32,000 nt of DNA, taken from the NCBI GenBank assembly GCA_038889235.1, contig JAWAHN010000001.1, positions 1,034,499-1,066,498 on the forward strand. Direction: 5' to 3'. The position numbers and the translations under genes are program-made. This document shows positions 7,801-26,601 of this stretch, one piece after another. This DNA is from Candidatus Jordarchaeales archaeon (GTDB lineage Archaea > Asgardarchaeota > Jordiarchaeia > Jordiarchaeales > Freyrarchaeaceae). The notes under the pieces are model-generated. The model was not told where the DNA came from, did no database searches, and saw nothing but the letters and a program-made list of their open reading frames with translations. The first letter of the stretch is position 1. Each line of letters begins with the position of its first letter.

Positions 7801-8213
7801 ACATATTCATAGGCGTTGTCTACTACCAGAAGTTACACCACATGGTAGCAGACAAAATGCACGCTCGCTCAAGAGGCCCCATACAAATACTGACTAGGCA
7901 GCCAACTGAGGGCAGAGCTAGAGAAGGCGGATTAAGATTCGGAGAAATGGAACGCGACTGCCTTATAGGAATGGGCGCGGCACTACTACTCAAAGAAAAG
8001 CTTGTAGACGAGTCGGACAGGACGGAAATCTACGTCTGTGAAGAATGCGGTGGCCTAGCGGTCCAGACGCAAAACAAGAAGCTCTACTGCCCGCTGTGCG
8101 GCGAAAAAGTCCGCATATCAAAAGCGGTAGTAAGCTACGCGTTCAAACTACTAATCCAGGAAATGATGTCGATGTGCATATTCCCAAGGCTAAAACTAGA
8201 AAGCATAATTTAG
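4866..8213 (+). CDS. rpoB: DNA-directed RNA polymerase subunit B (single fused chain)
   Basis: [49 protein letters not shown] and C-terminal Zn ribbon. SD GAGGTG upstream of the ATG. Confidence 0.99.
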
Positions 8214-8214
8214 C

Positions 8215-8667
8215 CTAGAAGCCGATCTTACTTTTACTTTCTCCAACTATAACTGAACGCACACCCCTAACCCCTTCAAGCATGGCCACTTTATTTTGCA
8301 TAAATGAGAAAAACTCATCAATTCCTTCAGTTCTAACAAACACTACAGCGCACGGCTCCCCCCCAACACCCACAAAAACATCGCTAACTTCAGAAAAAGA
8401 GTAAAGCTTTTCGGAAACATAACTAATTCTTCCAGGGTCAACGTCTATTATGAGAACAGCCAAAAACTCAAAACCCAACTTTTTCCAATCCACCTCAACA
8501 GTAAACTTCCTGATGACCCCTCGCTTCACTAGTTTCTTAATTCTATTCGCAACGGTTCCGGCACTAACCCCAACCATTATGGAGATTTCACTAAAACTCT
8601 TCCTTCCGTCATTAAGAAGGATTGAAATAATCTTACGGTCAACATCATCAATTTTCTCATCTGGCAT
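8215..8667 (-). CDS. Lrp/AsnC family transcriptional regulator
   Basis: IDDVDRKIISILLNDGRKSFSEI..GVSAGTVANRIKKLVKRGVI HTH plus a C-terminal RAM-like domain. Confidence 0.92.
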   Translation of the reverse strand: MPDEKIDDVDRKIISILLNDGRKSFSEISIMVGVSAGTVANRIKKLVKRGVIRKFTVEVDWKKLGFEFLAVLIIDVDPGRISYVSEKLYSFSEVSDVFVGVGGEPCAVVFVRTEGIDEFFSFMQNKVAMLEGVRGVRSVIVGESKSKIGF

Positions 8668-8773
8668 ACCTTAACCCTCTCCGTTAGAAATCTCCTCAAA
8701 ACGACAGAACTAATGTTGATAAAAGGTAATTATATTTCTCTTTTCTCCTAACAAGCTTTTATAAAACTTCAAT

Positions 8774-8799
8774 AACCTTTTTTTAATAAAAAAGAGGTT
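8774..8799 (-). terminator. T-rich/inverted-repeat terminator of tRNA-Lys
   Basis: On the minus strand AAACCTCTTTTTTATTAAAAAAAGGTT follows the tRNA 3' end directly: a T-tract inside an imperfect palindrome. Confidence 0.5.
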
Positions 8800-8844
8800 T
8801 ACGGGCTGGGCGGGATTTGAACCCGCGGCCGCCGGGTTAAAAGC

Positions 8845-8863
8845 TTCGCCCGTTTTTATTTGT
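8845..8863 (-). other. tRNA-Lys intron 3 (19 nt, position 30/31)
   Basis: Central helix CGCC/GGCG, bulges GG^A and AA^G, outer helix AAAG/CUUU; excision completes the anticodon stem CCGGG/CCCGG. Confidence 0.85.
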
Positions 8864-8871
8864 CCGGCGCT

Positions 8872-8894
8872 TTAGGCGAGCCACGACTTTAGCT
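8872..8894 (-). other. tRNA-Lys intron 2 (23 nt, position 22/23)
   Basis: Central helix AGGU/GCCU, bulges AG^A and AA^A; excision gives GGUAGAGC. Confidence 0.75.
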
Positions 8895-8902
8895 CTACCT
8901 AG

Positions 8903-8919
8903 TTCCCCGGCAGCTGCCT
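8903..8919 (-). other. tRNA-Lys intron 1 (17 nt, position 15/16)
   Basis: GCUC AG^A GGC AGCU GCC GGGG AA^C UA. Central helix has one G.G mismatch, so the boundaries may shift by 1-2 nt. Confidence 0.7.
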
Positions 8920-8963
8920 CTGAGCTACCAGCCCACTCGGGTCTAATGTTTACACCTCTCTCC

Positions 8964-8976
8964 CTTATATTTTTCG
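8964..8976 (-). promoter_or_regulatory. BRE/TATA-like element of the tRNA-Lys promoter
   Basis: CGAAAAATATAAG on the minus strand, about 30 nt upstream of the mature tRNA 5' end. Confidence 0.55.
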
Positions 8977-9573
8977 GTGAACCCGCGTTGTCACCTCTCA
9001 GAAAAACTTTTATCCGCATTCGTGTGTCTTGTCTTTCGTCTTTTGGGGGTTTTAGGGTTGCAGGAGACCGAATTAGTTGAGCGGTGGGTCAAAGTCCTAC
9101 TTTCTTGTGTAGTTGCTTCATCTTTCAGTATCACATTTGCGCTTGCTGTTTACTCGCTTGAAGGTTTGTTTTTTTCGTTCCCACAATCCTTCTACGTGCT
9201 GTCATCCATAGGATGCTTTTCGTTCGCCCTCCTCCTGTTAGCATTTGCACACGTTTACTTTAAACGCGTGGAAAGAACCCTGCAAGAAAAAAGTGTTCTA
9301 TTTCGAAGGGTGAAACAAGTTGGTTTGCAAATGCTCAAAATGGGCCTCTCATTTGCAAGCCTTTCTACACTACCCTTGGCATACCTGTTTTTACGTTCCT
9401 TTTTGCTTACCTCCAATTTAATTCAACTTACTGTACTTTACTTGCATCCACTTTACCTTTTACAACTCATACTTCCTATTGACGTTTACATTTCACGCCT
9501 GTTCTTCATTATATGTCTCTGCCCAGCATCTATTCTTCTACTCGAGGGATTAGTCCTCTACAAGAAAATGTAA
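8977..9573 (+). CDS. Hypothetical multi-pass membrane protein
   Basis: 198-codon ORF filling the gap between tRNA-Lys and cdc48, with about 4 hydrophobic segments. No family recognised; start uncertain. Confidence 0.5.
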   Translation: MNPRCHLSEKLLSAFVCLVFRLLGVLGLQETELVERWVKVLLSCVVASSFSITFALAVYSLEGLFFSFPQSFYVLSSIGCFSFALLLLAFAHVYFKRVERTLQEKSVLFRRVKQVGLQMLKMGLSFASLSTLPLAYLFLRSFLLTSNLIQLTVLYLHPLYLLQLILPIDVYISRLFFIICLCPASILLLEGLVLYKKM

Positions 9574-9594
9574 GGAAGCTAAAAAGAGAAAGCC

Positions 9595-11904
<2,310 letters not shown>

Positions 11905-12004
11905 TTAACGTATTGTCTGCCCGCCCAAATAAACGCCGCTAACCTAGATAAGGGTAAACTCTTAAAAATAAGACCTCCAATAACTCTTAATCGAGCTGTT
12001 CGAG

Positions 12005-13030
12005 GTGGAAGGTGACTTTTTGTCTCTCCCCCACTATGATACCTTAAGAAAAGATGCTGAAAGAAACCTTGAGGTAGGTAGATTCCTCAATGCAGCTAGG
12101 GAGTTTCGAGTTCTGTCGCTTGCGGCGGAAAAAGACGGAGTCTATGAGCTTGCAGGAGAGTTCGCAGCCAAATCCGGAGATTGCTGGCTTAAAATGGGTA
12201 AACATGCCGCCGCAGCGACCATGTACGAACATGCAGCAAAAAACTTTCATTTAGCAGGAAAGTTATCGCATGCAAAATCCTATTTCAAAAAAGCTTTTAC
12301 AGAATTCCTTATAGCGTCGAAAATGCCTGAAACTTCCACCTTAGATAAAGTGCTTTTCCTCGTTCGGGCGGCCAGATGCGTTTCCGCTCTCGGAGACCAA
12401 CGTACTGCCAAAACTCTCTTTTCAAAGGCTTGCGATCTCTTAGTCAACTTTGTGCCCTCCTACTTCTCCAACGAGGATTATGCCTCTGCTATGTTACACT
12501 ATCTTATCGTTATAAAGCTTTGTGAAGAGATGGACGACAAAGAAAAAGCTTGTCAAGTTGGTTCCTCCTTACGTGAGCTTTCTATGCGTTTTCTGCGCTT
12601 AATATCTGAAAAATCAGTGGAAGAGCAAGACAAGTTCGTTCAAGACCTCCTAAAAAACTTGCTCAACAATCCTCTGTTAAAGGAAGTTTTGGGACAACTG
12701 CCTGTTTTGTTTCAAACTTTACTTACTATTGCACCCGAGTTTCAAAGTCTAAATGTCATCCAAGTTTTGCTAAACTCTTTGTCACCATATTCAAACCCGA
12801 ACTCTACTACTGTAACGTTACATGAAACGTTTCATGAATCACCCCAACAAGCTTCAGCATCGTATGTTTCTCCACAAAGCGAGCAAATCCTTAATTTACC
12901 CTTGTTACACACTAGAACGCCACCGGAAAAACCCACAGTAAACGGGCAAAGGATGAAATCAGAACAGTTCCCCTCACAAGATTCAACGAGTGGTAATTCG
13001 TTAGATGATTTAAAGCAGGAGGAGGGCTGA
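12005..13030 (+). CDS. TPR/SNAP-like helical-repeat protein with a low-complexity S/T/Q/P-rich C-terminal tail
   Basis: Ala/aromatic helical periodicity (AAKSGDCWLKMGKHAAAATMYEHAAKNFHLAG); the last ~85 aa look disordered. GTG start. Confidence 0.6.
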   Translation: MEGDFLSLPHYDTLRKDAERNLEVGRFLNAAREFRVLSLAAEKDGVYELAGEFAAKSGDCWLKMGKHAAAATMYEHAAKNFHLAGKLSHAKSYFKKAFTEFLIASKMPETSTLDKVLFLVRAARCVSALGDQRTAKTLFSKACDLLVNFVPSYFSNEDYASAMLHYLIVIKLCEEMDDKEKACQVGSSLRELSMRFLRLISEKSVEEQDKFVQDLLKNLLNNPLLKEVLGQLPVLFQTLLTIAPEFQSLNVIQVLLNSLSPYSNPNSTTVTLHETFHESPQQASASYVSPQSEQILNLPLLHTRTPPEKPTVNGQRMKSEQFPSQDSTSGNSLDDLKQEEG

Positions 13031-13037
13031 CTAATTT

Positions 13038-13799
13038 ATGGAGTCTGATGCTTCCCAAAAATCTCTCTCTGTAGCTGAAGCAACAAGGCAAATAATTACA
13101 ACTAAACCTTCAGTGATGGACTGCCTCCGGCAGGGCGTAATAAACTTCTCAGCACTAGCGGAATCCATCAAGAACCAAGTTGCAGCGCTCTGTGGGCGCA
13201 AATCTGTCAACGTCGACTCAATAAAAATGGCGCTAATGCGTTACTCGGAGGAGCTCAAACGCAAGAAGCAGATAATTGAGCAGCAGGTATCTGACATAAT
13301 ATGCAAAAGCATACTTGAATTGAAAAACGATGTAGCCGTCTTAATCATAAGGCCAGCGTCACTTCTCTCATATTTGGACAAAATAGTGAAGCTTGTTGAG
13401 TCATCGCGCTTCCTCCAAGTGACACAAAGCGCGTCAGCGCTCACGGTAGTAACTGACCTGGAAACCAAGTCAAAGATACTTGAAATAGTAGAAAAGAAAA
13501 ATGTGATAGAAATCTTAGACGACCAGTCTGCAATAATTATCATAAGCCCCCCACAAATAATAGAAGTGCCGGGAGTTATCTCTTACATTACCGACTTGTT
13601 AGCCGGCAACAATGTTAACATCACTCAGATAATATCATGTTACACTGACACCATTTTGATTGTAAAAAGGAGTGACGCCCTTAGAGCTTACAAGTTAATT
13701 GAAGATCGCATACTGTTTTTGCGAAAACTAACATCTCACTCTAAAGAAGGTTCTAAGGAACTAACTACTGCCTTGCCCCACAATAACTACAGATCATAA
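13038..13799 (+). CDS. Conserved archaeal ACT-domain-containing protein
   Basis: N-terminal CLRQGVINFSALAE and C-terminal ACT (IEVPGVISYITDLLAGNNVNITQIISCYTDTILIV). Confidence 0.8.
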   Translation: MESDASQKSLSVAEATRQIITTKPSVMDCLRQGVINFSALAESIKNQVAALCGRKSVNVDSIKMALMRYSEELKRKKQIIEQQVSDIICKSILELKNDVAVLIIRPASLLSYLDKIVKLVESSRFLQVTQSASALTVVTDLETKSKILEIVEKKNVIEILDDQSAIIIISPPQIIEVPGVISYITDLLAGNNVNITQIISCYTDTILIVKRSDALRAYKLIEDRILFLRKLTSHSKEGSKELTTALPHNNYRS

Positions 13800-14655
13800 G
13801 ATACTCCGGTATCTCCTCTCCACAGACACCACACCTCTTGTATCCTGGCCTAGTTGGCGCCTTCACATCTTTTTCCTTCAGCGCTGCAAAGAACGTTACC
13901 TTGGTTTCAACTGAACGGGGCTTAGGTGTTATCTGAGTGGCTTGAGATATTACTCCTTCACTTTGAATGTACTCGTCTCCTTCAATTTTCCCTGGGAGCC
14001 TTCCGCTCTGAATTAACGCAGATAAAACTTGCCTTATGCGCTCTGCGCTCTCTCCGACACGCCAGGCAATATCACTAATGCTCATCCTTCCATAAACATT
14101 CTCTGAATCTATTACGGTGATACTTGTACTTTCCCTCACTCCTACACCCTCCTCACTTTTCACTTCTACCGCTTCCCGCTTCACTCCTTCCTCTTCCATT
14201 TGTAATGGCGCCTCTTCCTCAACTATTTCCCAACCTTCCACTTCAACTGTTTCTTGAGACTCCTCACGGACTTTAGTCGCCTTCAAAACCTCAAGTAATT
14301 CCCTAACTAACTGGTCTTCCTCCTCGGTGTATTCCGCTTTTATCTTACTCCACTCCTCTTCAACTTCTTCATACCTTCCTTCAAACATTCGTAGCCCTAT
14401 ATCTGCGAACACCCTCCTATGGTCCGAAACACCGTGTTTCTGACAAATTTCGATAGCTTTTTCGACGTACTTTTTACCCTCCTTGTCTTCGGCGAGCAGA
14501 CTGTACATCCCTGCCAGTGTGTAGAAGTCTACCGCTACATCGTATATTCCTTCCTCCACAAGTATCTTGGCTGTGTCCTCGTAATACGCCACTTTCTTCC
14601 TTGCTTCCTCACTCCTCTCCTCAACCAACTTTACATCTTCCTCCAAGAGAATCAT
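13765..14655 (-). CDS. Helical-repeat + acidic linker + PCI-like winged helix + C-terminal zinc-ribbon protein
   Basis: VYGRMSISDIAWRVGESAERIRQVLSALIQSGRLPGKIEGDEY fits the PCI winged-helix pattern. CGVC…CSYC ribbon at the C-terminus and an E/V-rich linker. Confidence 0.6.
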   Translation of the reverse strand: MILLEEDVKLVEERSEEARKKVAYYEDTAKILVEEGIYDVAVDFYTLAGMYSLLAEDKEGKKYVEKAIEICQKHGVSDHRRVFADIGLRMFEGRYEEVEEEWSKIKAEYTEEEDQLVRELLEVLKATKVREESQETVEVEGWEIVEEEAPLQMEEEGVKREAVEVKSEEGVGVRESTSITVIDSENVYGRMSISDIAWRVGESAERIRQVLSALIQSGRLPGKIEGDEYIQSEGVISQATQITPKPRSVETKVTFFAALKEKDVKAPTRPGYKRCGVCGEEIPEYLMICSYCGARQ

Positions 14656-14813
14656 GCGTTCTTTAGTTTAAAGCTTGTATTACCCCTTATATAAACCATT
14701 TTTGAGCTTAAAATAGGGATTCCAAGCAGTAATTCGTGGTCCTTCGTATTTCTAAGATACGGGAATTTTTTCGTTCGTCTTAACATTTATCTAAAAATAG
14801 AATTAAGACTCCG

Positions 14814-15563
14814 CTATGTTTGCAATAGTATCCCTTTGATTATCCTCTCCTCGGCCTCGTCAAGTTCTGGGGATATTTCTTCAACGAATTCCTCCACTTT
14901 AACCTCCCCGTAGATGAGTTTCCTAGTAACGTTGACAAACTTCTTAGTTTCCTCCTCTATACTCTCCTCCCTAGAAAGGGCGATAACTTTGTTAATCAAC
15001 CCTTTCGCAGCTTCATGCTCTCCCAACGCCATGTAGCAGATAGCCGCCCAGCTCAAGTTTATGGCACCATAGTCGTAGTCTTTTTCGTCGCACCATATTT
15101 CCCCATATTGTTTGAAGTTCTCGGCTGCCAGTGTAAGCATTTCTACGTACTTATCTTTTTCTCTCACTTTCTTGTATATTACTGCAGCGCTGGCGTATGA
15201 AAGGGCGGCTGATCCAAGATTTCCCATTTCCTCAAGTTTTCTCCCCCTTCCGGCGTATATCTCGGCTGCGCTGTAAGCCAAACTCCTGTACTCGTCCTTT
15301 TTCCCCATTTTTTCATAGCATGCCGCCATTTCTTCATAATCCCTCGCCGCTGAAACATCATACCCCAATTTAAGGTGTATTTCCAACGCCCTCGAGTATG
15401 CTTCTATAGCTTTTTCAAGCAAACCATGTTGCTTGTAGCAGTCTCCCGCCTCTTTCAGCGTATCTGCCGCTTTCTCGAGAAACTCCTGTCCTGCAACAGT
15501 GCTCGTAGCTTTTTTCGCATAATCCTCCGCTTTTCTGATCTTTTGTTCACATTCCTCAACCAA
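14814..15563 (-). CDS. Soluble NSF attachment protein (SNAP)-like TPR protein
   Basis: AADTLKEAGDCYKQHG, KAIEAYSRALEIHLKLGYDVSAARDYEEMAACYE resemble alpha/gamma-SNAP repeats (cf. [24 protein letters not shown]). Confidence 0.6.
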   Translation of the reverse strand: MVEECEQKIRKAEDYAKKATSTVAGQEFLEKAADTLKEAGDCYKQHGLLEKAIEAYSRALEIHLKLGYDVSAARDYEEMAACYEKMGKKDEYRSLAYSAAEIYAGRGRKLEEMGNLGSAALSYASAAVIYKKVREKDKYVEMLTLAAENFKQYGEIWCDEKDYDYGAINLSWAAICYMALGEHEAAKGLINKVIALSREESIEEETKKFVNVTRKLIYGEVKVEEFVEEISPELDEAEERIIKGILLQT

Positions 15564-15703
15564 CTATTTTCCCCTCCCAGAGCAACTTTATTTCCGCTAA
15601 ATCCATCCATTAATTTAAAACTTTCACACTTTTGTATCAATTAGAACCACTTCCACATTAAATTGTTTTGTTGGATACGTTATTTTGAAATATAGTCCAC
15701 TTC

Positions 15704-17002
15704 GTGGTGGATTCCCAAAATCTGGGAAGCGAGGGAACTTTGAATTTGCCAACCAAAATTGCGTCTTTCTCCGCGTCACCTGGAGAGGTTAGCCTTTGCG
15801 TCCTACTATACTCTGGAGGATTGGACACGAGTTGCATGTTAAAATGGATCCAAGAATACTATGATGCAGACGTGATCTCTTTAACCCTTAACCTTGGTCA
15901 GTCCAAGGATTTTAGAGCGATAGAGGAGAAAGCCCGCCGGCTTGGAGTCAAAAAGCATTATACGATAGATGCCCGCAAGGAATTTGTAGAAAACTATGTT
16001 TTTCCAGCAATAAAAGCCAATGCACTATACCAAGATGCTTATCCAATAAGTTCATCTCTCTCACGCCCTCTCATCGCGAAGTGGGGGGTAGAAATAGCTC
16101 GAAAAGAAGGAGCTGACGCTATAGCTCATGGCTGTACAGGTAAGGGAAACGATCAAGTCCGCTTTGACGTCACAATTTCAACCTTAGCACCGGACCTAAA
16201 GATAATCGCTCCAGTGGTCGAGTGGAACTTGAGTCGAGATCAAGCAATTGAGTACGCTAAGAAGCACGGGATACCGATCCCTGTCAATGTGGACTCCCCC
16301 TACAGCATAGACGAAAACCTTTGGGGGAGAAGTATAGAGTGCGGTCCGCTCGAGGACCCATCTCTCGAGCCCCCAGAGGAAGTCTACGAGTGGACAGTAC
16401 CCCCTGAAAAAGCACCTTCCTCTCCAGAATACTTGGAAATAGAGTTTAGTGAAGGCGTCCCTGTGGCTCTTAACGGTGAAGAGATGGATGGTGTCTCGCT
16501 AATATCAAAGCTAAACGAAATTGGAGGTGCACACGGGGTTGGGCGGATAGACCACATGGAGGACAGGATTGTAGGCCTGAAATCCCGTGAGGTTTATGAA
16601 GCCCCCGCAGCCACGATACTAATTAAAGCCCATAAGGATCTGGAGAAGATGGTATGCACTAGACATGAAAACCTTTTCAAGAAGATCATTGATGATCAAT
16701 GGACTTTCCTTGCCTATGCGGGGTTATGGATGGACCCGCTAAGAGAGGATTTAGAGGCCTTTATAAACAAGGTTAACGAAAAAGTCAATGGTACGGTGAG
16801 GGTTAAGCTTTTCAAGGGAAACGCTCAGGTAGTAGGAAGGTCGTCACCATACGCCCTTTACGACAAGACTCTAGCAACGTACGGCAAGGAGTCAACATTC
16901 AATCAATACGCCTCGCTGGGGTTCATAGAACTATGGGGCTTGCAATCTAAAATGGCGTACGCTGTGAAAAAGTTGCTTGAAGAGAGGAAAGAGAGGGCAT
17001 GA
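15704..17002 (+). CDS. argG: Argininosuccinate synthase
   Basis: YSGGLDTS, AHGCTGKGNDQVRF, YSIDENLWGRSIECG, GLKSREVYEAP. True start may be a downstream TTG. Confidence 0.98.
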   Translation: MVDSQNLGSEGTLNLPTKIASFSASPGEVSLCVLLYSGGLDTSCMLKWIQEYYDADVISLTLNLGQSKDFRAIEEKARRLGVKKHYTIDARKEFVENYVFPAIKANALYQDAYPISSSLSRPLIAKWGVEIARKEGADAIAHGCTGKGNDQVRFDVTISTLAPDLKIIAPVVEWNLSRDQAIEYAKKHGIPIPVNVDSPYSIDENLWGRSIECGPLEDPSLEPPEEVYEWTVPPEKAPSSPEYLEIEFSEGVPVALNGEEMDGVSLISKLNEIGGAHGVGRIDHMEDRIVGLKSREVYEAPAATILIKAHKDLEKMVCTRHENLFKKIIDDQWTFLAYAGLWMDPLREDLEAFINKVNEKVNGTVRVKLFKGNAQVVGRSSPYALYDKTLATYGKESTFNQYASLGFIELWGLQSKMAYAVKKLLEERKERA

Positions 17003-18483
17003 GCGACAAGCTGTGGGGTGGAATATATAGGGAGAAATCTCTGAAAGATGTCGAGCATTACACTTCCCATGAAAACATACTGCTAGATGAGCGTCTCGTT
17101 GAATACGATATTCTGGGCACGATAGCGCACGACTACATGCTGTGGAAAATAGGTGCTTTGAGCGAAAAGGCTCTCAAAAAAATTATCTCAGCCCTCCTCA
17201 GGATTAGAGAAGAGTTTAGGAAGGGTCTCTTCCGCCTTAAGATGGAGTATGAAGACGTACACATGAACATTGAAAAGCGGGTTGCAGAGCTAGCTGGAGA
17301 AGACGTTGGAGGAATGATGCACCTTGCTAGGTCTAGAAATGACCAAGTGTTGGTCGACATACGAATGTATCTTCGCGATGAAATAAACGAGCTAACTGGT
17401 CTAACTCTCAACTTAGTAAAAGCCTTTCTATTGTTAGCAAAAAAACATGTCAAAACAGTTATGCCTGCATTCACGCACACTCGTCCTGCCCAACCCACAT
17501 CTTTCGCTCATTGGTGTCTTGCAGTTTCAGACTCTCTTTTGAGGTGTGTTAATCGCCTTAGCGAACACTATAGGCGCGTGAACACTTGTCCGTTAGGGGC
17601 AGGAGCCGTTAGTGGTGTCGGGTGGCCCGTTGACAGGAATCTAACCGCATCGCTCTTAGGCTTCGATGAGGTACATGAAAATACATTTGATGCTATTTCT
17701 TCGCGCGGTGAAATAGAGGCCGAAACCATCTTTATACTAACGCTACTCATGATGACCCTAAGTAGGGTTAGCGAAGACCTAATCTGGTGGTCGACGACAG
17801 AGTTTTCCATGATAGAAATAGATGAACGGTATACCACGGGAAGCAGCATAATGCCACAAAAGAAAAATCCCGATGTCCTGGAACTTGTAAGAGGGAGAAG
17901 CAGCCGTGTTCTAGGCAACCTTGTAGGTTTACTTTCCCTCTTAAAGGCGCTTCCATCGGGTTATAACAGGGATCAACAGGAGACGAAGTTCCTCCTCTTT
18001 AACTCAATAGACATAGTTAAAGAGACACTAGCTATAATGGCTCAAGTTATTGAGACGTTAAAAGTCAACGAAGAAAGAATGGCTGAAATAGCTAAGCGGG
18101 GCATGGTTACTGCAACCGATCTCGTAGATCTTCTGGTTAGAAAAGGACTATCCTTCCGTGTTGCACACAGAGTGGTCGGTGAGTACATTAAATTCGCCTC
18201 GCGCGTCGGCCACGACCCCGTGTTGCTCTCTAAGATAGCCTCAGAAACATCGGGATTACACGTCCAAGTATCCGAAGAAGACATACTCCGCGCCTTAGAC
18301 CCGGTTGCAGCGCTAGAACGTCGCTGCCACTTAGGATCCCCTGCTCCAAGCGAGATACTAAGAATGTTGAACGAAAGAGAAAAAATCGTAGAAATTGAGG
18401 AAGAGTCACTAAGCCGTAGAAAAGAAAGGGTGAAACAAGCAATTAGCAGATTAGAAGAAATTGCCTTATCGCTTGCTTCCTAA
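16999..18483 (+). CDS. argH: Argininosuccinate lyase
   Basis: EDVHMNIE, ARSRNDQV, CPLGAGA, TGSSIMPQKKNPDVLELVRG. 4-nt overlap with argG. Confidence 0.98.
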   Translation: MSDKLWGGIYREKSLKDVEHYTSHENILLDERLVEYDILGTIAHDYMLWKIGALSEKALKKIISALLRIREEFRKGLFRLKMEYEDVHMNIEKRVAELAGEDVGGMMHLARSRNDQVLVDIRMYLRDEINELTGLTLNLVKAFLLLAKKHVKTVMPAFTHTRPAQPTSFAHWCLAVSDSLLRCVNRLSEHYRRVNTCPLGAGAVSGVGWPVDRNLTASLLGFDEVHENTFDAISSRGEIEAETIFILTLLMMTLSRVSEDLIWWSTTEFSMIEIDERYTTGSSIMPQKKNPDVLELVRGRSSRVLGNLVGLLSLLKALPSGYNRDQQETKFLLFNSIDIVKETLAIMAQVIETLKVNEERMAEIAKRGMVTATDLVDLLVRKGLSFRVAHRVVGEYIKFASRVGHDPVLLSKIASETSGLHVQVSEEDILRALDPVAALERRCHLGSPAPSEILRMLNEREKIVEIEEESLSRRKERVKQAISRLEEIALSLAS

Positions 18484-18529
18484 GAACTTTCAACAAGCTT
18501 CCTCCTTTGGTTAAAATTAGGTTGAAAAC

Positions 18530-19318
18530 TTAGACTTTGTAGCCCTTCACGAATTTCATGAAGACTCCCATGTACATGCACTCCTCGATTGGTATAGTCA
18601 TTTCTAAATCATCCACCAGTCTCTCGGTAAACACCACCGGCGCATTTCTGACTAAAACTACGGGGGTTTTCTCATTCCTCTCTCCCATTATAATCTCTGC
18701 TGCCGCGGCTATACAGTCCGCGATCGCCCTCCTCGTAATCTTCAGCCTTTCTCCATAGATGTCACTTTTTCCTCTTTCGTCGATCACGGGTTCGAAACCG
18801 GCGACTCCTAACGCTATACCTGTGTTACCAAGTCTCAAAGGTTGCACTCTGCTATCTACGATGAGCACGGCAACCTTTTTACCTGTCTTTTCTATCACTT
18901 TTTTCCTAATTTTTCTCGCACTTTCCGTTGGGTCCTTTGGTGGAAGTATGACGTATCCAGGAGGGGCATTAGACCTGTCAACGCCAGCATTAGCCTGCAA
19001 AACCCCTTTTCTGAGAGTTAATAGTGCTCCATAAACACAACCATACACTTCGTCTGCCTCTTTAAGAACGACTTCTACGAATTCCGGGGGAAGCCCGCAC
19101 TGCTCGGAAAGTTTTACCGCTTTCTCGGATGGTTTAACTTCCTTTAGGGAAACTATACGCCCCTCACTAACAGAAACCACCTTAGACGTTATGACTAATA
19201 TATCGTGGTCCCTAAGTTTGATCCTCGCTCTCCTAATTCCGTCTAAAATCACTTCGACTAAATCGTCCCCTACTTCCACCACTTTTGTCTTAATTCCTTT
19301 CAAAATCATCGTCATCAA
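18530..19318 (-). CDS. cofE: Coenzyme F420-0:L-glutamate ligase
   Basis: DILVITSKVVSVSEGR, ANAGVDRSN, VLIVDS..PLRLG..GIALGVAG, IAAAAEIIMGE. Confidence 0.9.
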   Translation of the reverse strand: MMTMILKGIKTKVVEVGDDLVEVILDGIRRARIKLRDHDILVITSKVVSVSEGRIVSLKEVKPSEKAVKLSEQCGLPPEFVEVVLKEADEVYGCVYGALLTLRKGVLQANAGVDRSNAPPGYVILPPKDPTESARKIRKKVIEKTGKKVAVLIVDSRVQPLRLGNTGIALGVAGFEPVIDERGKSDIYGERLKITRRAIADCIAAAAEIIMGERNEKTPVVLVRNAPVVFTERLVDDLEMTIPIEECMYMGVFMKFVKGYKV

Positions 19319-19713
19319 CTCGGCGTTATCGCTTTCAACCCGTATTTCTCGACAACTTCAACGATATCTCTCCTTTTAGTAACTATCTTATCGCAGTTTT
19401 TGAGAAGGGCGGTGGCTATAACCGCTCCCCCCTCCATGTCGCTTTTTGCAAGGTGCATGAACCGGCCTGCGTCTAACGCTATCTTAACATCAAGGAGAAC
19501 CACGCTTACACTTAACACTTGTTTTAGTGCAGCAACTAGGAGGTCCACCTGCCACCCCCTACCGTCTCTCCATAAACTCATAGAAGCCGCTGCTAGTGAT
19601 ACCGTTGAAATGTAGACTCGCTCCCCCTTTTTCACGTTCTCCCAGAATTCCTCCGCCCACTTCTCCCCGTCCAAAAGCGCTATGAGAAACGATGAATCCG
19701 CAACCGCTGCCAT
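19315..19713 (-). CDS. PIN-domain protein (degenerate active site)
   Basis: VADSSFLIALL, VYISTVSL, AVIATAL, KIVT PIN pattern. ATG at 19713 preceded by AGGGGG. Confidence 0.75.
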   Translation of the reverse strand: MAAVADSSFLIALLDGEKWAEEFWENVKKGERVYISTVSLAAASMSLWRDGRGWQVDLLVAALKQVLSVSVVLLDVKIALDAGRFMHLAKSDMEGGAVIATALLKNCDKIVTKRRDIVEVVEKYGLKAITPS

Positions 19714-19723
19714 ACGTTCCCCC

Positions 19724-20473
19724 CTAGAGATTGTCTCCGCAAACGCAGAAAACCTCGTGCAATAATTCAAATAGCTCTTCGTGCCCTTCCATAGTCACAG
19801 AAGATGTGGATATGATACGCTTTGCTGGCCTAATTTTGCTCAAAACTTCCAACGCGATTGACGCCACGTCTGCAATGACCCCTGTTTCCTTCATGAGTTC
19901 TAGTTTCAGAAGCTTATCGTCGCTTATAAGCTTCCTAATACGTCCGTCTGTATCCATATCTGACTTATGCAAAACCGTTATGGTCTCGACACCCAGGCTT
20001 AGCTGAACCGCCAACCCCACGAATATTGCAACAATAAACTTACTTAGCGTTGAAGCCAAGTCACATCCTATAAGGAAAACTCCGCAAACGCGTGCAAACT
20101 CTCGCAAACGGCGCATGAACTCGCCGCCAGCCTCCCTGAAAGCAAATATTTCAAGCTGTCCCGGCGTATCTACTAATACGAACTCGCATCCCCTTCCTCT
20201 TATCTCAGAAACTATGTGATCGTAATGTGCAAGGATTCTTTCGCTGGCTCTAAGCATAGCTAAGTTTGGCCCAATGCCTTCCTCCCGCATTATGTCGGAG
20301 ATTGTAAAAATGCTACGTACATCGAAATCTGGTTCATATGGTAACTCTTCTACTCCAGGATCTAAATTAACGAGCATAACGCTATACCCTTTCTCATTTA
20401 AGAAGCGACCAAAGGTTTTAGTTAAGCTTGTTTTCCCTGAGCCAGCGAACCCAAAGAATGGGACGATAAACAA
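19724..20473 (-). CDS. GPN-loop GTPase
   Basis: GFAGSGKT, VNLDPG, GIGPNL (GPN loop), VDTPGQLEIF, HKSD. Confidence 0.93.
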   Translation of the reverse strand: MFIVPFFGFAGSGKTSLTKTFGRFLNEKGYSVMLVNLDPGVEELPYEPDFDVRSIFTISDIMREEGIGPNLAMLRASERILAHYDHIVSEIRGRGCEFVLVDTPGQLEIFAFREAGGEFMRRLREFARVCGVFLIGCDLASTLSKFIVAIFVGLAVQLSLGVETITVLHKSDMDTDGRIRKLISDDKLLKLELMKETGVIADVASIALEVLSKIRPAKRIISTSSVTMEGHEELFELLHEVFCVCGDNL

Positions 20474-20497
20474 AACCAGCCGCTTCCTCCCTAAAAT

Positions 20498-20785
20498 TTA
20501 GGAAATTATGAGGGGCTCAGCAAGTTTAACTGTTGTTCCTAAAGCCTCTCCAGGGAGCCCCTTCCTAAATTTTGCCCTAACAGCGCCGCCGCTTCCATGA
20601 CATGAAACTATCTTCCCCCTCAATTCTTTTCCTTTGTGGTTAACCCAAATAACAGTTCGTCCAATTAGTTTAGCAGCTTTTTCATCAGAATCTATCCCAT
20701 CAAACCGTATTACTATGTCTTTGGGGTGTTGCAAATGCTTGCTCAACACGTAGTTAATGATCCTCCCTTCCGTGACAACTTTCAT
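20498..20785 (-). CDS. rpl35ae: 50S ribosomal protein L35Ae
   Basis: QHPKDIVIRFDGIDS..AAKLIGRTVIW, GKIVSCHGSGGAVRAKFRKGLPGEALG. Confidence 0.92.
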   Translation of the reverse strand: MKVVTEGRIINYVLSKHLQHPKDIVIRFDGIDSDEKAAKLIGRTVIWVNHKGKELRGKIVSCHGSGGAVRAKFRKGLPGEALGTTVKLAEPLIIS

Positions 20786-20990
20786 TACGACCCTCCTAAA
20801 CTCTTTTCCACTGTCAACGAGAGGATAAAGTTGTGTACGTCATAAATTTTTCGTGCATTTGGCGTACAAAAATGAGCCTAACAGTACTTTACAATTTTAA
20901 CTATTCGGGAAAATTTATTTAATTGTTCTGAGACGTAGAGACATGAGCTTTTGTCAAAAAGTGTAAATAACAGTTGCGGCGGGAGGAAAA

Positions 20991-21638
20991 ATGCTTAACA
21001 TTGACAGTAACAGAGAAAGAGTTGTTTTCGACATAATGCAAGAGCACATCAGGGTCATCGTCTTTGCTGTTAAGGAGTTTGAACTATCTTTTGAGGACTG
21101 GATGCAGGGTAACATGAAGGCGGTTGAGGAAAGACTGAGCAAAATCTCAAATTATGCTAAAGAAGCGGATAAAATTAAGCGCAATATAATAGACGAGCTC
21201 TCTCTAGCAGCATCTCTTCTCCAGAGAGAAGACTTCATGCGCTTTGCTTTAATCGTTGATAAAATAGCTGACTTCACTGAGGGAATGTGTTTCCGCTTGT
21301 CTGGTATACGCAACTGGAAGCCGAGAGGAGTTATAGCTGAAGACATGCGAAACATGGTTTCTACATTCGCTCATGCTGTTGAAAAGCTGAGAGAAGCTGT
21401 GAACGTGTTGTCTGAGGACGCTGAACGCGCATTGAACGCTATACTTGAAGTGGACGCCGCGGAAAGACTTGCCGATCAAATACACAGAACCATCGAACAA
21501 TCCTTGTTCGAGTTGAATGTAGACCACAGAACGCTAATTCGCCTCCTAAATTTGATTTCACACATGGAAGACGCGGTGGATGTGACTCAAGAAGCAGCTG
21601 AAGCGCTAAGGATAATTGCTATGTTCAAGCTAGGATAA
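20991..21638 (+). CDS. DUF47/PhoU-like phosphate transport regulator family protein
   Basis: Two helical repeats (EADKIKRNI…LLQREDF…DKIAD; ERLADQIHR…MEDAVD). SD GGAGG. Confidence 0.85.
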   Translation: MLNIDSNRERVVFDIMQEHIRVIVFAVKEFELSFEDWMQGNMKAVEERLSKISNYAKEADKIKRNIIDELSLAASLLQREDFMRFALIVDKIADFTEGMCFRLSGIRNWKPRGVIAEDMRNMVSTFAHAVEKLREAVNVLSEDAERALNAILEVDAAERLADQIHRTIEQSLFELNVDHRTLIRLLNLISHMEDAVDVTQEAAEALRIIAMFKLG

Positions 21639-21665
21639 AACTTCCTGAAAAGGGGGGTCGAAAGG

Positions 21666-22256
21666 ATGTCTGCTGAATCAACCCCTCAATCGACAGTCCT
21701 TCGCTCAAAGAAAGTCGCTGAGCTCATAGAAGGTAATAGAATCATAGTTTGGGATCCAGAGGAAGGATCTAAACTGTACGGCGAAGGGTTCTACGGACAA
21801 CCTCTAGGTATACGGAAGCCCAAGACCCCCCAATTCAACAAACCATTAGAACTCTCACTTCTTGAAGCACTCTATTTGCTAGAAAAGGGGCGCATCGAAA
21901 TATACGACATGAACGACGGCCATCTCATCACGAGGAAAGAATTAGAAGAAAAAGCAGAGAAAACATACATAGACTTCAAGACAAAGTACATTGTCTACAA
22001 GGACCTAAGGGAAAAAGGATACGTGGTTAGACCGGGGCTAAAGTTCGGTGCGGACTTCTCGGTTTACGAGCATGGTCCAGGAATAGACCATGCCCCCTTG
22101 ATCGTTAGCGTAGTTCCGCTAGGAACCCAGTTAAGCCCAATAGACATAGTTAGAGCCGGCCGTCTTGCAACGTCAGTAAGGAAAAAGTTCGTGATAGCCA
22201 CTGTTGAACAGACAGGGGAACCAAAGTACTACATTTTCTCGTGGTTTAAACCGTAA
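21666..22256 (+). CDS. endA: tRNA-intron endonuclease, catalytic subunit
   Basis: RPGLKFGADFSVYEHGPGIDHA (catalytic Tyr, His), GRLATSVRK (Lys), N-domain LELSLLEALYL. Confidence 0.96.
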   Translation: MSAESTPQSTVLRSKKVAELIEGNRIIVWDPEEGSKLYGEGFYGQPLGIRKPKTPQFNKPLELSLLEALYLLEKGRIEIYDMNDGHLITRKELEEKAEKTYIDFKTKYIVYKDLREKGYVVRPGLKFGADFSVYEHGPGIDHAPLIVSVVPLGTQLSPIDIVRAGRLATSVRKKFVIATVEQTGEPKYYIFSWFKP

Positions 22257-22287
22257 AGCACCTTCTCTTAAATCCCGTCTATCTGTT

Positions 22288-22593
22288 CTATGTTGGAACG
22301 AAAAGTATTGCGAGAACAAGCAAGACTAATCCTAAGAGTAGTAATACAATCCACGTCCTAAAGTGTTTCTTCCACTCTGTTGCCTCTTTCTCAATTTGCT
22401 TCTTTGTCCCCCACGCTGTTATAGCGATGAAGAGAACCATTAAGATTATTGATGCAGCTTCGTTATCCAAACTTACTGTTTTAAGTGTGACGACAAGTAA
22501 AACTGTAAGTGCCACACTCACTAGTCCCCCCCACCAGACCCATTCCAGTAACACTTCAGCAACGCTTTTAAGGTTCTTTGCCTCGCTCTCCAT
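22288..22593 (-). CDS. Small three-TM hypothetical membrane protein
   Basis: 101-aa ORF with three hydrophobic stretches filling the endA-map gap. Confidence 0.6.
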   Translation of the reverse strand: MESEAKNLKSVAEVLLEWVWWGGLVSVALTVLLVVTLKTVSLDNEAASIILMVLFIAITAWGTKKQIEKEATEWKKHFRTWIVLLLLGLVLLVLAILFVPT

Positions 22594-22732
22594 AGATCCT
22601 CCCTTCCCTGTTTTTCAAATCATTTAAAAGTGTTAAGTTTCAACACAACGTTTCAGCTCGTTACTACGCCAAAATTCATTATAAAAAGTTTTTCCGGTAT
22701 CAAAATCGTAGGCTAAAAGAGGTGTTCTCTAC

Positions 22733-23611
22733 GTGGCTCTACCTGAAGGAGAAATAGATGCATACAAAAAAGCAGGCATTATTGTTGAACGCGCTATTCA
22801 CAAGGGTGAAAAACTTGTTAAGCCAGGTACTCTGCTTTTAGACATTTGCGAAACTGTGGAATCCTACATACTTGACGAGGGAGCCAATCTAGCATTTCCA
22901 TGCAACATTTCCGTCAACGAAGTTGCTGCGCACTACACACCCCCATCCGGAGATGACACCGTCGTGCCGCATCGCGCCATAGTTAAGATAGATGCTGGGG
23001 CACACATAGACGGGTGTATAGTCGACAAAGCTGTTTCAGTCGCAACGACACAAGACTTGAAAGAACTGGTTCATGCAGCTGAAGAAGCGCTCAGAAATGC
23101 TTTGAAAATTATTAAACCAGGGATGTATGTTTCCCTCATAGGTAAAGTCATAGAGTCAACCATAAGGCTACATGGTTTCAAACCTATAATTAACCTTTCA
23201 GGCCACCAGATCAAAAAATATCAACTCCACGCAGGAAGAACCATACCAAACTTTGACACTCGAAACCTCGTGGACAAAGTACTACCAGGTGAAGTTTATG
23301 CCATCGAGCCCTTTGCTACAAATGGCGCCGGGCTAGTCACAGCCACCAGAAAAGCTTACATATACAGGGTTTTAAAAGCACCCCTCCTCCCGCAGCAGCT
23401 TGCTGACCAACTGAAAAACTACGGCTCACTACCCTTCGCTGCGAGATGGATAAAAAACTTTGAGAGAGCACGTCTCGAAAAACTTCTAGATGGCTTAGTA
23501 AAGAGAGGAATCTTGGCGGCCTATCCCGTTCTTGTTGAAAAAGCTAAAGGCATGGTGGCGCAGTTTGAAACAACAGTCATCGTCACCGACGATCTTTGCC
23601 TCGCTCTTTAG
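22733..23611 (+). CDS. map: Methionine aminopeptidase type II
   Basis: AFPCNISVNEVAAHYTP, KIDAGAHIDGCIVD, NLSGH, YAIEPF, QFE metal ligands. GTG start after GAGGTG. Confidence 0.97.
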   Translation: MALPEGEIDAYKKAGIIVERAIHKGEKLVKPGTLLLDICETVESYILDEGANLAFPCNISVNEVAAHYTPPSGDDTVVPHRAIVKIDAGAHIDGCIVDKAVSVATTQDLKELVHAAEEALRNALKIIKPGMYVSLIGKVIESTIRLHGFKPIINLSGHQIKKYQLHAGRTIPNFDTRNLVDKVLPGEVYAIEPFATNGAGLVTATRKAYIYRVLKAPLLPQQLADQLKNYGSLPFAARWIKNFERARLEKLLDGLVKRGILAAYPVLVEKAKGMVAQFETTVIVTDDLCLAL

Positions 23612-23999
23612 CCTTTCTTAGAGGGGTTTCGAAAATGCTTTCTATAAAGTAGTTTCCAGCATTGCACTTGTTGCACTCTCCCTCTTTTTTAAACACGTAG
23701 TCCCCTATTTCAAACTCTCTAACGATGTACGCCCCGCAATTATTGCAGCGTAGCACACTGATCGTTTTAGTCCCAAACTGTAGCTTTCTCTCTCTAGGCA
23801 GAGCTAAAAACACGTAGATGAGCAATATAAAAACCAGAACGCCGTATGAAAAGTAAACCCCTCGCTGAAAGTCAAGCCACTGAGTCAAACCGTAATAGAT
23901 CAAGTAGCCTCCAATTAACGCAACAACAATCCCGACAAGGATTAGCGCCAACCGCGTAAGTCTCTCCCCTTTCCTAACACTTTTCTGCAAAGCCCTCAC
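23583..23999 (-). CDS. Two-TM membrane protein with a C-terminal zinc ribbon
   Basis: Two TM helices, then CNNC…GDYVF…CNKC. Directly follows the DUF1512 gene. Confidence 0.7.
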   Translation of the reverse strand: MRALQKSVRKGERLTRLALILVGIVVALIGGYLIYYGLTQWLDFQRGVYFSYGVLVFILLIYVFLALPRERKLQFGTKTISVLRCNNCGAYIVREFEIGDYVFKKEGECNKCNAGNYFIESIFETPLRKAKERGKDRR

Positions 24000-24003
24000 T
24001 CTC

Positions 24004-25128
24004 CTAATTTCCTATACCAATACAATTCCCAACCCCGACCACGACTACTGCGTCCCCTTCACTTGTAAACCTCTCAATAATCTCTTTAACCCTTTCCTTT
24101 GCCTCCATAACCCCCTTAACAATCTCCTTCTTCATAGTGGTCAATGCCTCCTCGAGAGACATCTTGATAACTACTGCGTCAATAGCCACCTCCTCTTCCA
24201 CCGCTCCAACCTCAATCTTGTACTTATCAACCCCAGGGCCGCCTATAGCAGCCCCCACTCCTTCCACTACTTTCCCTGTGTCTTCCCCTTCAAACTTAAG
24301 TCCAGCATCGATCATAATTATTCTCCTAACTTTACCCCTTTTCTCCTTAAGAACTCGTAAGACCCCGTCGCCAGGTTTGCCAACCCTGCCGCCCGGTCCC
24401 TTTGCCCTCAAAATCACAACTTCTCTGCCCTTATACATTGCATCTGCTCGCACAAGTTCACCGTTGAAGTCCCTAAAACCTTCCTCTCCTTTAAGCTCTC
24501 TCACCAAAAGGGATGCTACTAGGGCTCCCGCGCCGTCGCCGATGGGTTTTCCATGATAGAAGGCGTTTAGAGCTTCACGGTAAGCCAGAGCTATTCTGCT
24601 GAGGAACGGAATCATAACCTGCAGTTGGGAGACCAATGCAATGTTCCCGCTCTCCCTGCTCATAATATAGTAGTGTCTCAAAATGAAAAATAACTGTCGT
24701 AATGCCGAAGCAGCTTCCAAAACCATTTCAAGGTTGGCGATACGTTCAGCGTCAGCCTGCAGGGCCACCTCTTCAATTAAGCCTCTAAACCTTATCCTTC
24801 TAACGTCCAAAAGGTGCTCCAGCCTCTTCAAAACTCCTACAGGATCTCTCTCTACTGGTTCAATGAAAACAAAGTCAAGCATTCTCTCGACAAATGCAGC
24901 CACCTCCTTATCTCCCCCAGATTCTCTAACTGCCCTAACAGCGATCTTTTTCCCTTCTTCACTCCACGCCTCAATCTGCCGCACGAAATCTCCAATCTGA
25001 AGAAGCCAAACTCGAACCTGAATTCTCGTGCCTCCTAAGATGAAGACCAAAAAGAACAACACGTAGATTAGGGTAATCAAAAGGAAAAGCGTTGGGTTTT
25101 GCTCACCGAGAAGTTGCAGCTGCAACAT
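24004..25128 (-). CDS. DUF1512 family protein
   Basis: N-terminal TM, IEPVERDPVGVLKRLEHLLD, KPIGDGAG, KGPGGRVGKPG, IDAGLKFEGE, GVGNCIGIG. Start moved to ATG 25128 (AGGTG SD) because the longer ORF runs through the tRNA. Confidence 0.85.
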   Translation of the reverse strand: MLQLQLLGEQNPTLFLLITLIYVLFFLVFILGGTRIQVRVWLLQIGDFVRQIEAWSEEGKKIAVRAVRESGGDKEVAAFVERMLDFVFIEPVERDPVGVLKRLEHLLDVRRIRFRGLIEEVALQADAERIANLEMVLEAASALRQLFFILRHYYIMSRESGNIALVSQLQVMIPFLSRIALAYREALNAFYHGKPIGDGAGALVASLLVRELKGEEGFRDFNGELVRADAMYKGREVVILRAKGPGGRVGKPGDGVLRVLKEKRGKVRRIIMIDAGLKFEGEDTGKVVEGVGAAIGGPGVDKYKIEVGAVEEEVAIDAVVIKMSLEEALTTMKKEIVKGVMEAKERVKEIIERFTSEGDAVVVVGVGNCIGIGN

Positions 25129-25255
25129 AGACTGACACCTGGAACCAAAAAGGAAAAGCATGCATTTTAAAATATCGGTTTCGGTGAGAAATAGCAGGAA
25201 AATTCGCCGAAAAAAGAGTAAGTATATCCCCCCGCCCGGATTTGAACCGGGGACC

Positions 25256-25277
25256 TTAGGCTGAAACTCACTAACTA
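25256..25277 (-). other. tRNA-Tyr intron 3 (22 nt, 44/45)
   Basis: Central GGGU/GCCU (two G-U pairs), bulges AU^U and AA^G, outer GAC/GUC. The 5' strand lies inside intron 2. Confidence 0.55.
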
Positions 25278-25278
25278 A

Positions 25279-25304
25279 TACCCGTCTCCGGTTTTTCCGG
25301 AGTT
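25279..25304 (-). other. tRNA-Tyr intron 2 (26 nt, 43/44)
   Basis: Inner hairpin CUCCGG-AAAAA-CCGGAG, central ACCG/CGGG (one A.G mismatch), bulges AG^A and UA^U. Confidence 0.65.
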
Positions 25305-25310
25305 CTCGGT

Positions 25311-25356
25311 GTCTGTGCAAGCGCCGGCTGGGCTCGCCGCGCCTGAGGGCACAGCG
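25311..25356 (-). other. tRNA-Tyr intron 1 (46 nt, canonical 37/38)
   Basis: Strict BHB: CUGU/ACAG central helix, bulges AG^C and AC^A, outer CUCGG/CCGAG. Confidence 0.9.
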
Positions 25357-25506
25357 CTACAGCCGAGCGCTCTACCACTAAGCTACGGGGGGATGCCATT
25401 ATCATCACTTATGTTCCTGTTATTTATTTTTTTCGAGCTCGAAAGGTTATTATTTTTATACCATAAATTTCACTTAGAACGTTTTCCGTGTCATTTGGGT
25501 GGTATT

Positions 25507-26601
25507 TTGCCGTCTGTCGAGCTAGTTAATGTTTCTAAACGCTTTGGAAGGATAGTTGCTGTTGATAACGTTAGTTTGAGGATAGAAGATGGCGAGTATG
25601 TTGCCCTAGTGGGCCCGAGTGGTTGTGGTAAAACAACAACCTTGCGTATAATTGCTGGATTGGTGAAACCCGACGAAGGTAAAGTTTTAATAGACGGCGT
25701 GGATGTTAGCAACCTCCCCCCAGAGGAAAGGGGGATTGGGTTTGTTTTCCAGAACTACGCGCTGTTTCCCCACATGACTGTTTGGGAAAACGTGACCTAT
25801 GGACCGTGGGTTAGAGGGTGGGACGAGCAAAAGATGAGTGACGTTGCAAACGAAGTGCTGTCTCTCGTTAATTTACGCGGCCGTGAAGACGCTTACCCTA
25901 GAGAGTTAAGTGGGGGAATGCAGCAGCGTGTGGCCTTATCGAGAGCACTAGCAACCGAAACCCGCCTTCTCTTGCTAGATGAACCACTTGGAGCACTAGA
26001 CGCTAGGATAAGAGTTGAGTTAAGGCGTGAGATTAGGCGGCTTGTTAAAGACCTAGAAGTAACAGCTATTCACGTTACTCACGATACAGAAGAAGCCCTG
26101 ATGGTTAGCGATAAGATAGTTGTTATGAGGCGGGGAAAGATTGAGCAGGTAGGCTCTCCAAAAGAAATTTACCTTAGGCCGAAAACGCTATTCGTGGCGG
26201 GTTTTGTGGGTGAAATGAACTTCCTCAGCGGGATTGTTATCGAGAAAACCAGTGGTTTAGCCACCGTTAAGTTGGAAGGGAGTAAAGACTGTGTTGTCGC
26301 AAAAGACGAAAATGATGCGTTTAAAAAAGGTAGCAGAGTGGTCGTCGCTATAAGGCCAGAAAATGTCACTATAGGAAACGTTGAAGAGGCCTCCCCGAAG
26401 GGCGAAATTGAAGACCTATTCTTTTTAGGCTCATTCATCAAAGCAGTGGTACTACTCACCAACAATGTGAGAGTGGCAGCATACGTTTCTCCCAACGCCT
26501 CGATAAAAGTCGGCGACCGTGTCTCAATATTCTTTGACCCTATGGATTGCATACTTTTTGCGCATCCAGGCATCCCGTTGGAGGAAGCCCTGAAGGGCTA
26601 A
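25507..26601 (+). CDS. ABC transporter ATP-binding protein (PotA/MalK/CysA-like, C-terminal TOBE)
   Basis: GPSGCGKTT, FQNYALFPH, LSGGMQQR, LLLLDEP, HVTHD. Start moved to TTG 25507 because the longer ORF overlaps the tRNA. Confidence 0.92.
   Translation: MPSVELVNVSKRFGRIVAVDNVSLRIEDGEYVALVGPSGCGKTTTLRIIAGLVKPDEGKVLIDGVDVSNLPPEERGIGFVFQNYALFPHMTVWENVTYGPWVRGWDEQKMSDVANEVLSLVNLRGREDAYPRELSGGMQQRVALSRALATETRLLLLDEPLGALDARIRVELRREIRRLVKDLEVTAIHVTHDTEEALMVSDKIVVMRRGKIEQVGSPKEIYLRPKTLFVAGFVGEMNFLSGIVIEKTSGLATVKLEGSKDCVVAKDENDAFKKGSRVVVAIRPENVTIGNVEEASPKGEIEDLFFLGSFIKAVVLLTNNVRVAAYVSPNASIKVGDRVSIFFDPMDCILFAHPGIPLEEALKG

Follow-up and report, generated by a model that had tools for sequence, protein, structure and literature searches.

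An apparently single-copy tRNA-Lys(UUU) gene with three non-canonical introns in a hot-spring Jordarchaeales archaeon

How can a cell obtain its AAA-reading lysine tRNA from a gene whose mature letters are scattered over four exons, two of them only 8 nt long? The question is raised by a 133-nt gene on the minus strand (8934→8802) of a 32,000-nt stretch of DNA, referred to here as the window, from a hot-spring Jordarchaeales (Asgard) archaeon. The locus is very probably a functional, single-copy tRNA-Lys(UUU) expressed as one precursor, from which the introns would be cut by an (αβ)2 EndA, the exons joined by RtcB, and CCA added to the product. Along the gene, exons of 15, 8, 8 and 43 nt alternate with introns of 17, 23 and 19 nt, giving the order 15/17/8/23/8/19/43 nt, and the gene lies between candidate signals for transcription that are suggested by their sequence:

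8964..8977, minus strand: candidate BRE and TATA box (CCGAAAA ATATAAG), the TATA beginning 36 nt upstream of the tRNA
8920..8934, minus strand: exon 1, tRNA positions 1-15, identical across the family orthologs
8903..8919, minus strand: intron 1, 17 nt, at 15/16, with a relaxed BHB motif
8895..8902, minus strand: exon 2, 8 nt, positions 16-22 (with 17a)
8872..8894, minus strand: intron 2, 23 nt, at 22/23, central helix AGGU/GCCU
8864..8871, minus strand: exon 3, 8 nt, positions 23-30
8845..8863, minus strand: intron 3, 19 nt, at 30/31, central helix CGCC/GGCG
8802..8844, minus strand: exon 4, positions 31-73, with anticodon UUU and discriminator G73, CCA not encoded
8788..8793, minus strand: candidate terminator, a run of six U directly after the gene

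Removal of the three introns leaves a 74-mer that ARAGORN recognizes as tRNA-Lys(ttt), with Watson-Crick pairs at 21/21 stem positions, the conserved bases, a cloverleaf and the anticodon UUU; across the exon joins the spliced RNA reads CAG/CUAGGUAG/AGCGCCGG/GCUUUU. An earlier note on this DNA had proposed insertions of these lengths at these sites, two 8-nt internal exons, no intron at 37/38 and a perfectly paired 74-nt product, and the parse holds on each point, the spliced 74-mer bearing out the uninterrupted 37/38. The four exons lie in order within 133 nt and no second half was found elsewhere, so that a split or permuted arrangement was not encountered. The spacing of the BRE/TATA candidate equals that of most other tRNA genes here, and the motif is one base short of the strict pattern; a sigma-70 promoter scan was set aside because the host is an archaeon.

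BHB-like pairing, also claimed earlier for every insertion, is present with some refinement, as the central helices of introns 1, 2 and 3 contain 3/4, 4/4 and 4/4 pairs. The helix of intron 1 (GCUC/GGGG) carries a mismatch, G10 opposite G, and is accompanied by an inner helix of 4 bp and an outer helix of 2 bp. Intron 2 has one pair on either side, inner and outer, in the BHB register, and intron 3 has only one inner pair in that register, together with a possible outer helix of 4 bp. This outer helix can form, as had been noticed, both while intron 2 is present (AAAG/CUUU) and once it is removed (AGAG/CUUU), and it is absent from the predicted lowest-energy fold. When intron letters were shuffled with the exons fixed, the three motifs arose at frequencies of 0.087, 0.009 and 0.0001, a product of ~1e-7 that is slightly optimistic because intron 2 can slide.

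Sequence permits no sliding of introns 1 and 3, and the junction of intron 2 slides by 3 nt, the first three bases of the intron repeating those of exon 3. This repeat, together with a conserved hairpin that buries the 22/23 cut site, would favor a non-BHB geometry for the removal of intron 2, or a register shifted into the range 23/24 to 25/26. The shifted registers, however, pair only partly in the central helix: 1/4, 3/4 (this one lacking inner and outer pairs) and 2/4. All four central pairs form at 22/23 alone, and the intron is placed there for that reason. Additionally, the genome holds six other 22/23 introns; opening costs were scored for five of these and are low (0.8-2.6 kcal/mol), which leaves removal at any other register, or by another geometry, very improbable.

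The earlier note suspected that standard annotation could miss such tRNAs, and the tools behave accordingly. ARAGORN without introns reports no tRNA anywhere in the window, missing the Lys gene, and with the option -i it locates this gene but assigns it one wrong 62-nt intron. Rfam likewise misses the gene, returning only an 18-nt T-arm piece in the window, and exceeds its cut-off for only 12 of the genome's tRNA genes. A search of our own, which aligns a profile built from the tRNAs of other Asgard archaea and admits BHB-scored introns, gave the gene scores of 79 (linear) and 96 (with pairing), compared with maxima of 24.9 and 23.5 in a reversed-genome control. Four hot-spring metatranscriptomes mapped on positions 8000-26000 of the window yielded only short, partly matching pieces of other organisms, and the host was not seen.

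A census of the host genome (G000), a draft that is 95% complete in 8 contigs, was made with our own BHB-aware tool, with 15 genes curated by hand. It comprises 47 tRNA genes with an essentially full anticodon set and ~115 introns, or ~2.4 per gene, the total being only approximate because it is partly hand-curated and includes a few uncertain genes (Ser GGA, His, V-arm introns). Introns number 0 in 1 gene, 1 in 11, 2 in 10, 3 in 17, 4 in 7 and 5 in 1; 46/47 genes are interrupted, 25 carry at least three introns, and three is the commonest number (17/47). The very intron-rich genome inferred from the window is thus what the census finds. Lys(UUU) appears in it as a single gene, within the 95% of the genome that is assembled. 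An intact Lys(UUU) elsewhere, which the earlier note named as evidence that would speak against its reading, was looked for, and pattern searches of the host genome found no second copy, whether intact or split. The codon is in demand: AAA occurs 12,719 times in long open frames, compared with 15,691 for AAG, and by wobble rules a Lys(CUU) tRNA is unable to read AAA.

Comparison of intron positions in related genomes, a check proposed at the outset, drew on syntenic Lys(UUU) orthologs in the rpoB-lrp-tRNA neighbourhood of two related genomes (G003 and G004) and of metagenome contigs. Four distinct sequences of the family keep all three sites; at most two of the 74 exon positions vary among them, and their introns measure 16-17, 21-23 and 12-19 nt, with central pairing constant at 3/4, 4/4 and 4/4. 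The 15/16 site is found in 9/9 distinct sequences of the class, always with 3/4 pairs and a purine opposite G10. In the sister family, represented by five genomes, 15/16 and 30/31 are kept, 22/23 is absent and 53/54 is present instead, and exons 2 and 3 are contiguous, as the parse predicted. A more distant Asgard genome outside the class (L014) is uninterrupted at 15/16, 22/23 and 30/31 and carries only an 18/19 intron. These relatives, which are kin rather than independent samples, show each predicted junction somewhere as contiguous DNA. The sites 15/16 and 30/31 are common to the class, and 22/23 is confined to this family, to which the ortholog series dates it.

The same series bears on the reading of the locus as a pseudogene or decayed copy, with a working Lys(UUU) gene hidden in the unassembled 5% of the genome. 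The draft state of the assembly would allow this, two of the three BHB motifs are imperfect, and the Freyarchaeia ortholog is marked 'possible pseudo' in a published table (PMC11291895); the boundaries listed there, however, differ from those of the present parse, which yields a normal tRNA. Decay is also hard to reconcile with near-invariant exons and fully paired stems, retained at the same locus throughout the orthologs, which span several genera and two families and whose introns vary in length. Further, the pattern used for the search met no intact copy in any of 11 genomes of the order, and in G006, which is complete, the single Lys(UUU) match is the interrupted ortholog. A pseudogene is therefore extremely improbable, and the single copy with its conserved exons is best read as a gene probably under selection as the working copy.

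Which enzymes could process such a precursor? One of them is encoded in the window itself:

21666..22256, plus strand: EndA catalytic (alpha) subunit with a CSL-like loop, assigned by sequence comparison

Proteins from Jordarchaeales/Jordarchaeia MAGs share 94-95% identity with this one, which identifies the host as an Asgard archaeon. It is closest to the EndA alpha subunit of Aeropyrum pernix (E 4e-47), aligning without gaps through the Crenarchaea-specific loop, where its K51-P52-K53 faces K44-P45-R46 of the A. pernix loop. It is this loop, with its lysine, that enables an EndA to cut relaxed introns and introns in the D-loop (PMC3241643; PMC12397907). A second EndA paralog, on contig C3, lacks both the loop and the catalytic His; it would fit a structural (beta) subunit, and the enzyme would then be of the (αβ)2 type. 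The RtcB ligase and the CCA enzyme are both encoded in the genome. Since EndA, RtcB and the CCA enzyme are all present, the pathway is taken to be the known one, and we infer its action on the Lys(UUU) precursor. The gene would be transcribed as a single precursor, (αβ)2 EndA would cut every intron at its BHB or relaxed motif, RtcB would ligate the exons, and the CCA enzyme would complete the 3' end; the preferred order would be intron 3 first, intron 1 next and intron 2 slowest.

Two side observations concern these genes. At 21786-21848 of the window, an Asgard EndA has a loop that had been described as specific to Crenarchaea, and the key lysine is present in it. The EndA beta gene lies within ~2 kb of the gene for the CCA-adding enzyme (G000:C3:444283-446829, L106), and the ORF between them looks by eye like an RNA 2',3'-cyclic phosphodiesterase.

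Is the order of removal imposed by the precursor? Taking out any of the introns leaves the central helices of the others as they were, and a nested obligatory order was not encountered; each helix lies wholly within its own upstream exon, and therefore no intron needs another to be removed first. Predicted folding at 65 C nevertheless suggests a preference, which is plausible without being obligatory. In the precursors of three genomes, the cost of forming the motif is <1 kcal/mol for intron 3, 5-8 for intron 1 and ~6 for intron 2. Intron 1 (GCUGCCGGG) pairs with positions 39-47 as a decoy helix in 4/4 family precursor folds; its high cost comes from this pairing, in which the 3' part of the intron occupies the anticodon stem's 3' strand, and it eases once intron 3 is gone, from 7.8 to 3.5 kcal/mol in the host (G000), from 8.4 to 5.4 in G003 and from 4.8 to 3.2 in G004. 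The hairpin of intron 2 is predicted to pair G22, leaving only A21 bulged, in a register of 6-7 bp in 4/4 family sequences, and the intron is costly in every context because this pairing closes the 5' bulge. Opening it into the BHB shape takes ~6 kcal/mol, the sixth highest value of 74 introns scored (median 2.3); this cost and the central mismatch of intron 1 speak against the reading as a working, spliced gene.

These values lend themselves to a stricter reading, in which the same product arises by a folding switch: intron 1 would be blocked until intron 3 leaves and the anticodon stem forms, and intron 2, whose closed bulge must first open, would leave last. The decoy helix and the closed intron 2 register found in all four family sequences, the fall in the cost of intron 1 and the low cost of intron 3 agree with it. 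The location of each central helix in its own upstream exon, however, sets no removal prerequisite, the inner helix together with a purine-rich strand can give rise to the decoy incidentally, and the introns of the sister family do not co-vary with their anticodon stem. The energies, moreover, come from four related sequences and are nearest-neighbour values that ignore enzyme binding. Strict ordering is accordingly unlikely, and the preferred but not obligatory order is retained. This computed order may itself be a by-product, since the enzyme may simply force the shape. The modeled order 3, 1, 2 is plausible and resembles the stability-linked order in Cyanidioschyzon merolae, where independent BHB motifs are removed in an order following their stability (Soma 2013, PMC3728597); that organism is a eukaryote and its order was shown by RT-PCR, whereas the order for the Asgard Lys(UUU) is computed only. 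It is decidedly doubtful that the closed intron 2 bulge and the intron 1 decoy have been selected to force 3→1→2 and to rate-limit the only AAA-reading tRNA; if true, Lys(UUU) maturation would be tunable by temperature or enzyme level.

Several published systems place the gene in context, and it is a fresh example of a three-intron tRNA state already published for its lineage. Valentin-Alvarado et al. (2024, PMC11291895) reported introns in 92-95% of the tRNA genes of Freyarchaeia and Atabeyarchaeia, over half with several, and their Supplementary Data 4 gives three introns for the tRNA-Lys(TTT) of Freyarchaeia located at 1427332-1427497. That gene is an ortholog of the present one within the same class, and genome G006 matches there. 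By the present parse, the Freyarchaeia ortholog is interrupted at 15/16, 30/31 and 53/54, whereas the host gene is interrupted at 15/16, 22/23 and 30/31; its introns are shorter, and two of its exons have only 8 nt. In a bioRxiv preprint by Goswami, Ghosh and Sinha (2026, 10.64898/2026.10.13.758758), an Asgard census that includes Jordiarchaeaceae counted on average 2.2 intervening sequences in each gene and a maximum of five; tRNAscan-SE missed 30%, mostly in the D-arm, and (αβ)2 EndA is widespread. The intron-richness and the missed annotation inferred in the earlier note had thus already been measured in that preprint, whose text contains no 'Lys', and so leaves the present gene unnamed, and gives in the main text no splicing order and no RNA test. 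The preprint describes little copying of introns between Asgard tRNAs, unlike Thermoproteales. Likeness among 30/31 introns is expected because they pair with the same exon bases.

Thermoproteales tRNA genes carry up to three non-canonical BHB introns each (Sugahara 2007, 2008, as reviewed in PMC4033280 and PMC4090602). The reviews include 22/23 and 30/31 among the listed sites and an (αβ)2 EndA with CSL; Thermoproteales belong to another phylum, however, and 15/16 is absent from the review's partial site list. Taken alone, Lys(UUU) matters little, three introns being the commonest number here and the state being published for the class. The 133-nt precursor is nonetheless a small, clean test substrate, in which a near-canonical motif stands beside a mismatched and a closed one, and it would show what an Asgard EndA can cut and in what order. 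The papers cited here give no RNA-level or enzymatic demonstration that Asgard multi-intron tRNAs are spliced.

Three introns are also parsed in the window's other tRNA, read 25392→25227, in agreement with the earlier count for both:

25227..25392, minus strand: tRNA-Tyr(GUA), three introns (37/38, 43/44, 44/45), with a 1-nt exon, U44, at 25278

Its introns measure 46, 26 and 22 nt. The 44/45 intron has 4/4 central pairs only while the 43/44 intron is present and 1/4 afterwards, and the order here is therefore obligatory. This arrangement is kept in L003 and L004, with a GGGU/GGGC change, and the L003 copy has five introns.

Elsewhere in the genome, tRNA-Arg(GCG) (G000:C1:484986-485157, minus strand, locus L105) has five introns (20a/21, 29/30, 37/38, 50/51, 58/59), all with 4/4 central helices; its relatives have five in G002 and G003, four in G004 and three or four in the sister family. 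Its candidacy as a record was dropped, the published maximum being 'up to five' in the preprint (10.64898/2026.10.13.758758). A hand parse of tRNA-Trp(CCA) (G000:C2:111365-111550, plus strand) gives four introns in all. The one at 37/38 is long and carries C/D-box-like motifs, and a 13-nt BHB intron seems to be nested inside it, whose removal would have to come first. tRNA-His(GUG) (G000:C3:441751-441898, minus strand) seems to need 37/38 and 38/39 introns around a 1-nt exon, and good BHB geometry was not found for the second of these (38/39). The only intron-free tRNA in the assembly is a second Arg(CCG) at G000:C6:391-468, on a 5.7-kb low-GC contig where a 49-nt repeat of its 3' part recurs 4.1 kb away (C6 4576-4624); this contig probably represents either contamination or an element that has integrated.

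The window also encodes eukaryote-like proteins, namely an EAP30/Vps36-family ESCRT-II protein (36-788), Cdc48 (9595-11835) and a SNAP/TPR-like protein (14814-15563). Two DUF1512 paralogs lie 3.4 kb apart (24004-25320, minus strand; 28690-29787, plus strand), and the listed start of the first, which overlaps tRNA-Tyr, is probably too early. Two isoacceptor pairs, Ala(CGC)/Ala(UGC) (C1:481105, 1088321) and Gln(UUG)/Gln(CUG) (C1:359467, 443285), are each identical, introns included, save one anticodon base, which points to gene conversion or duplication.
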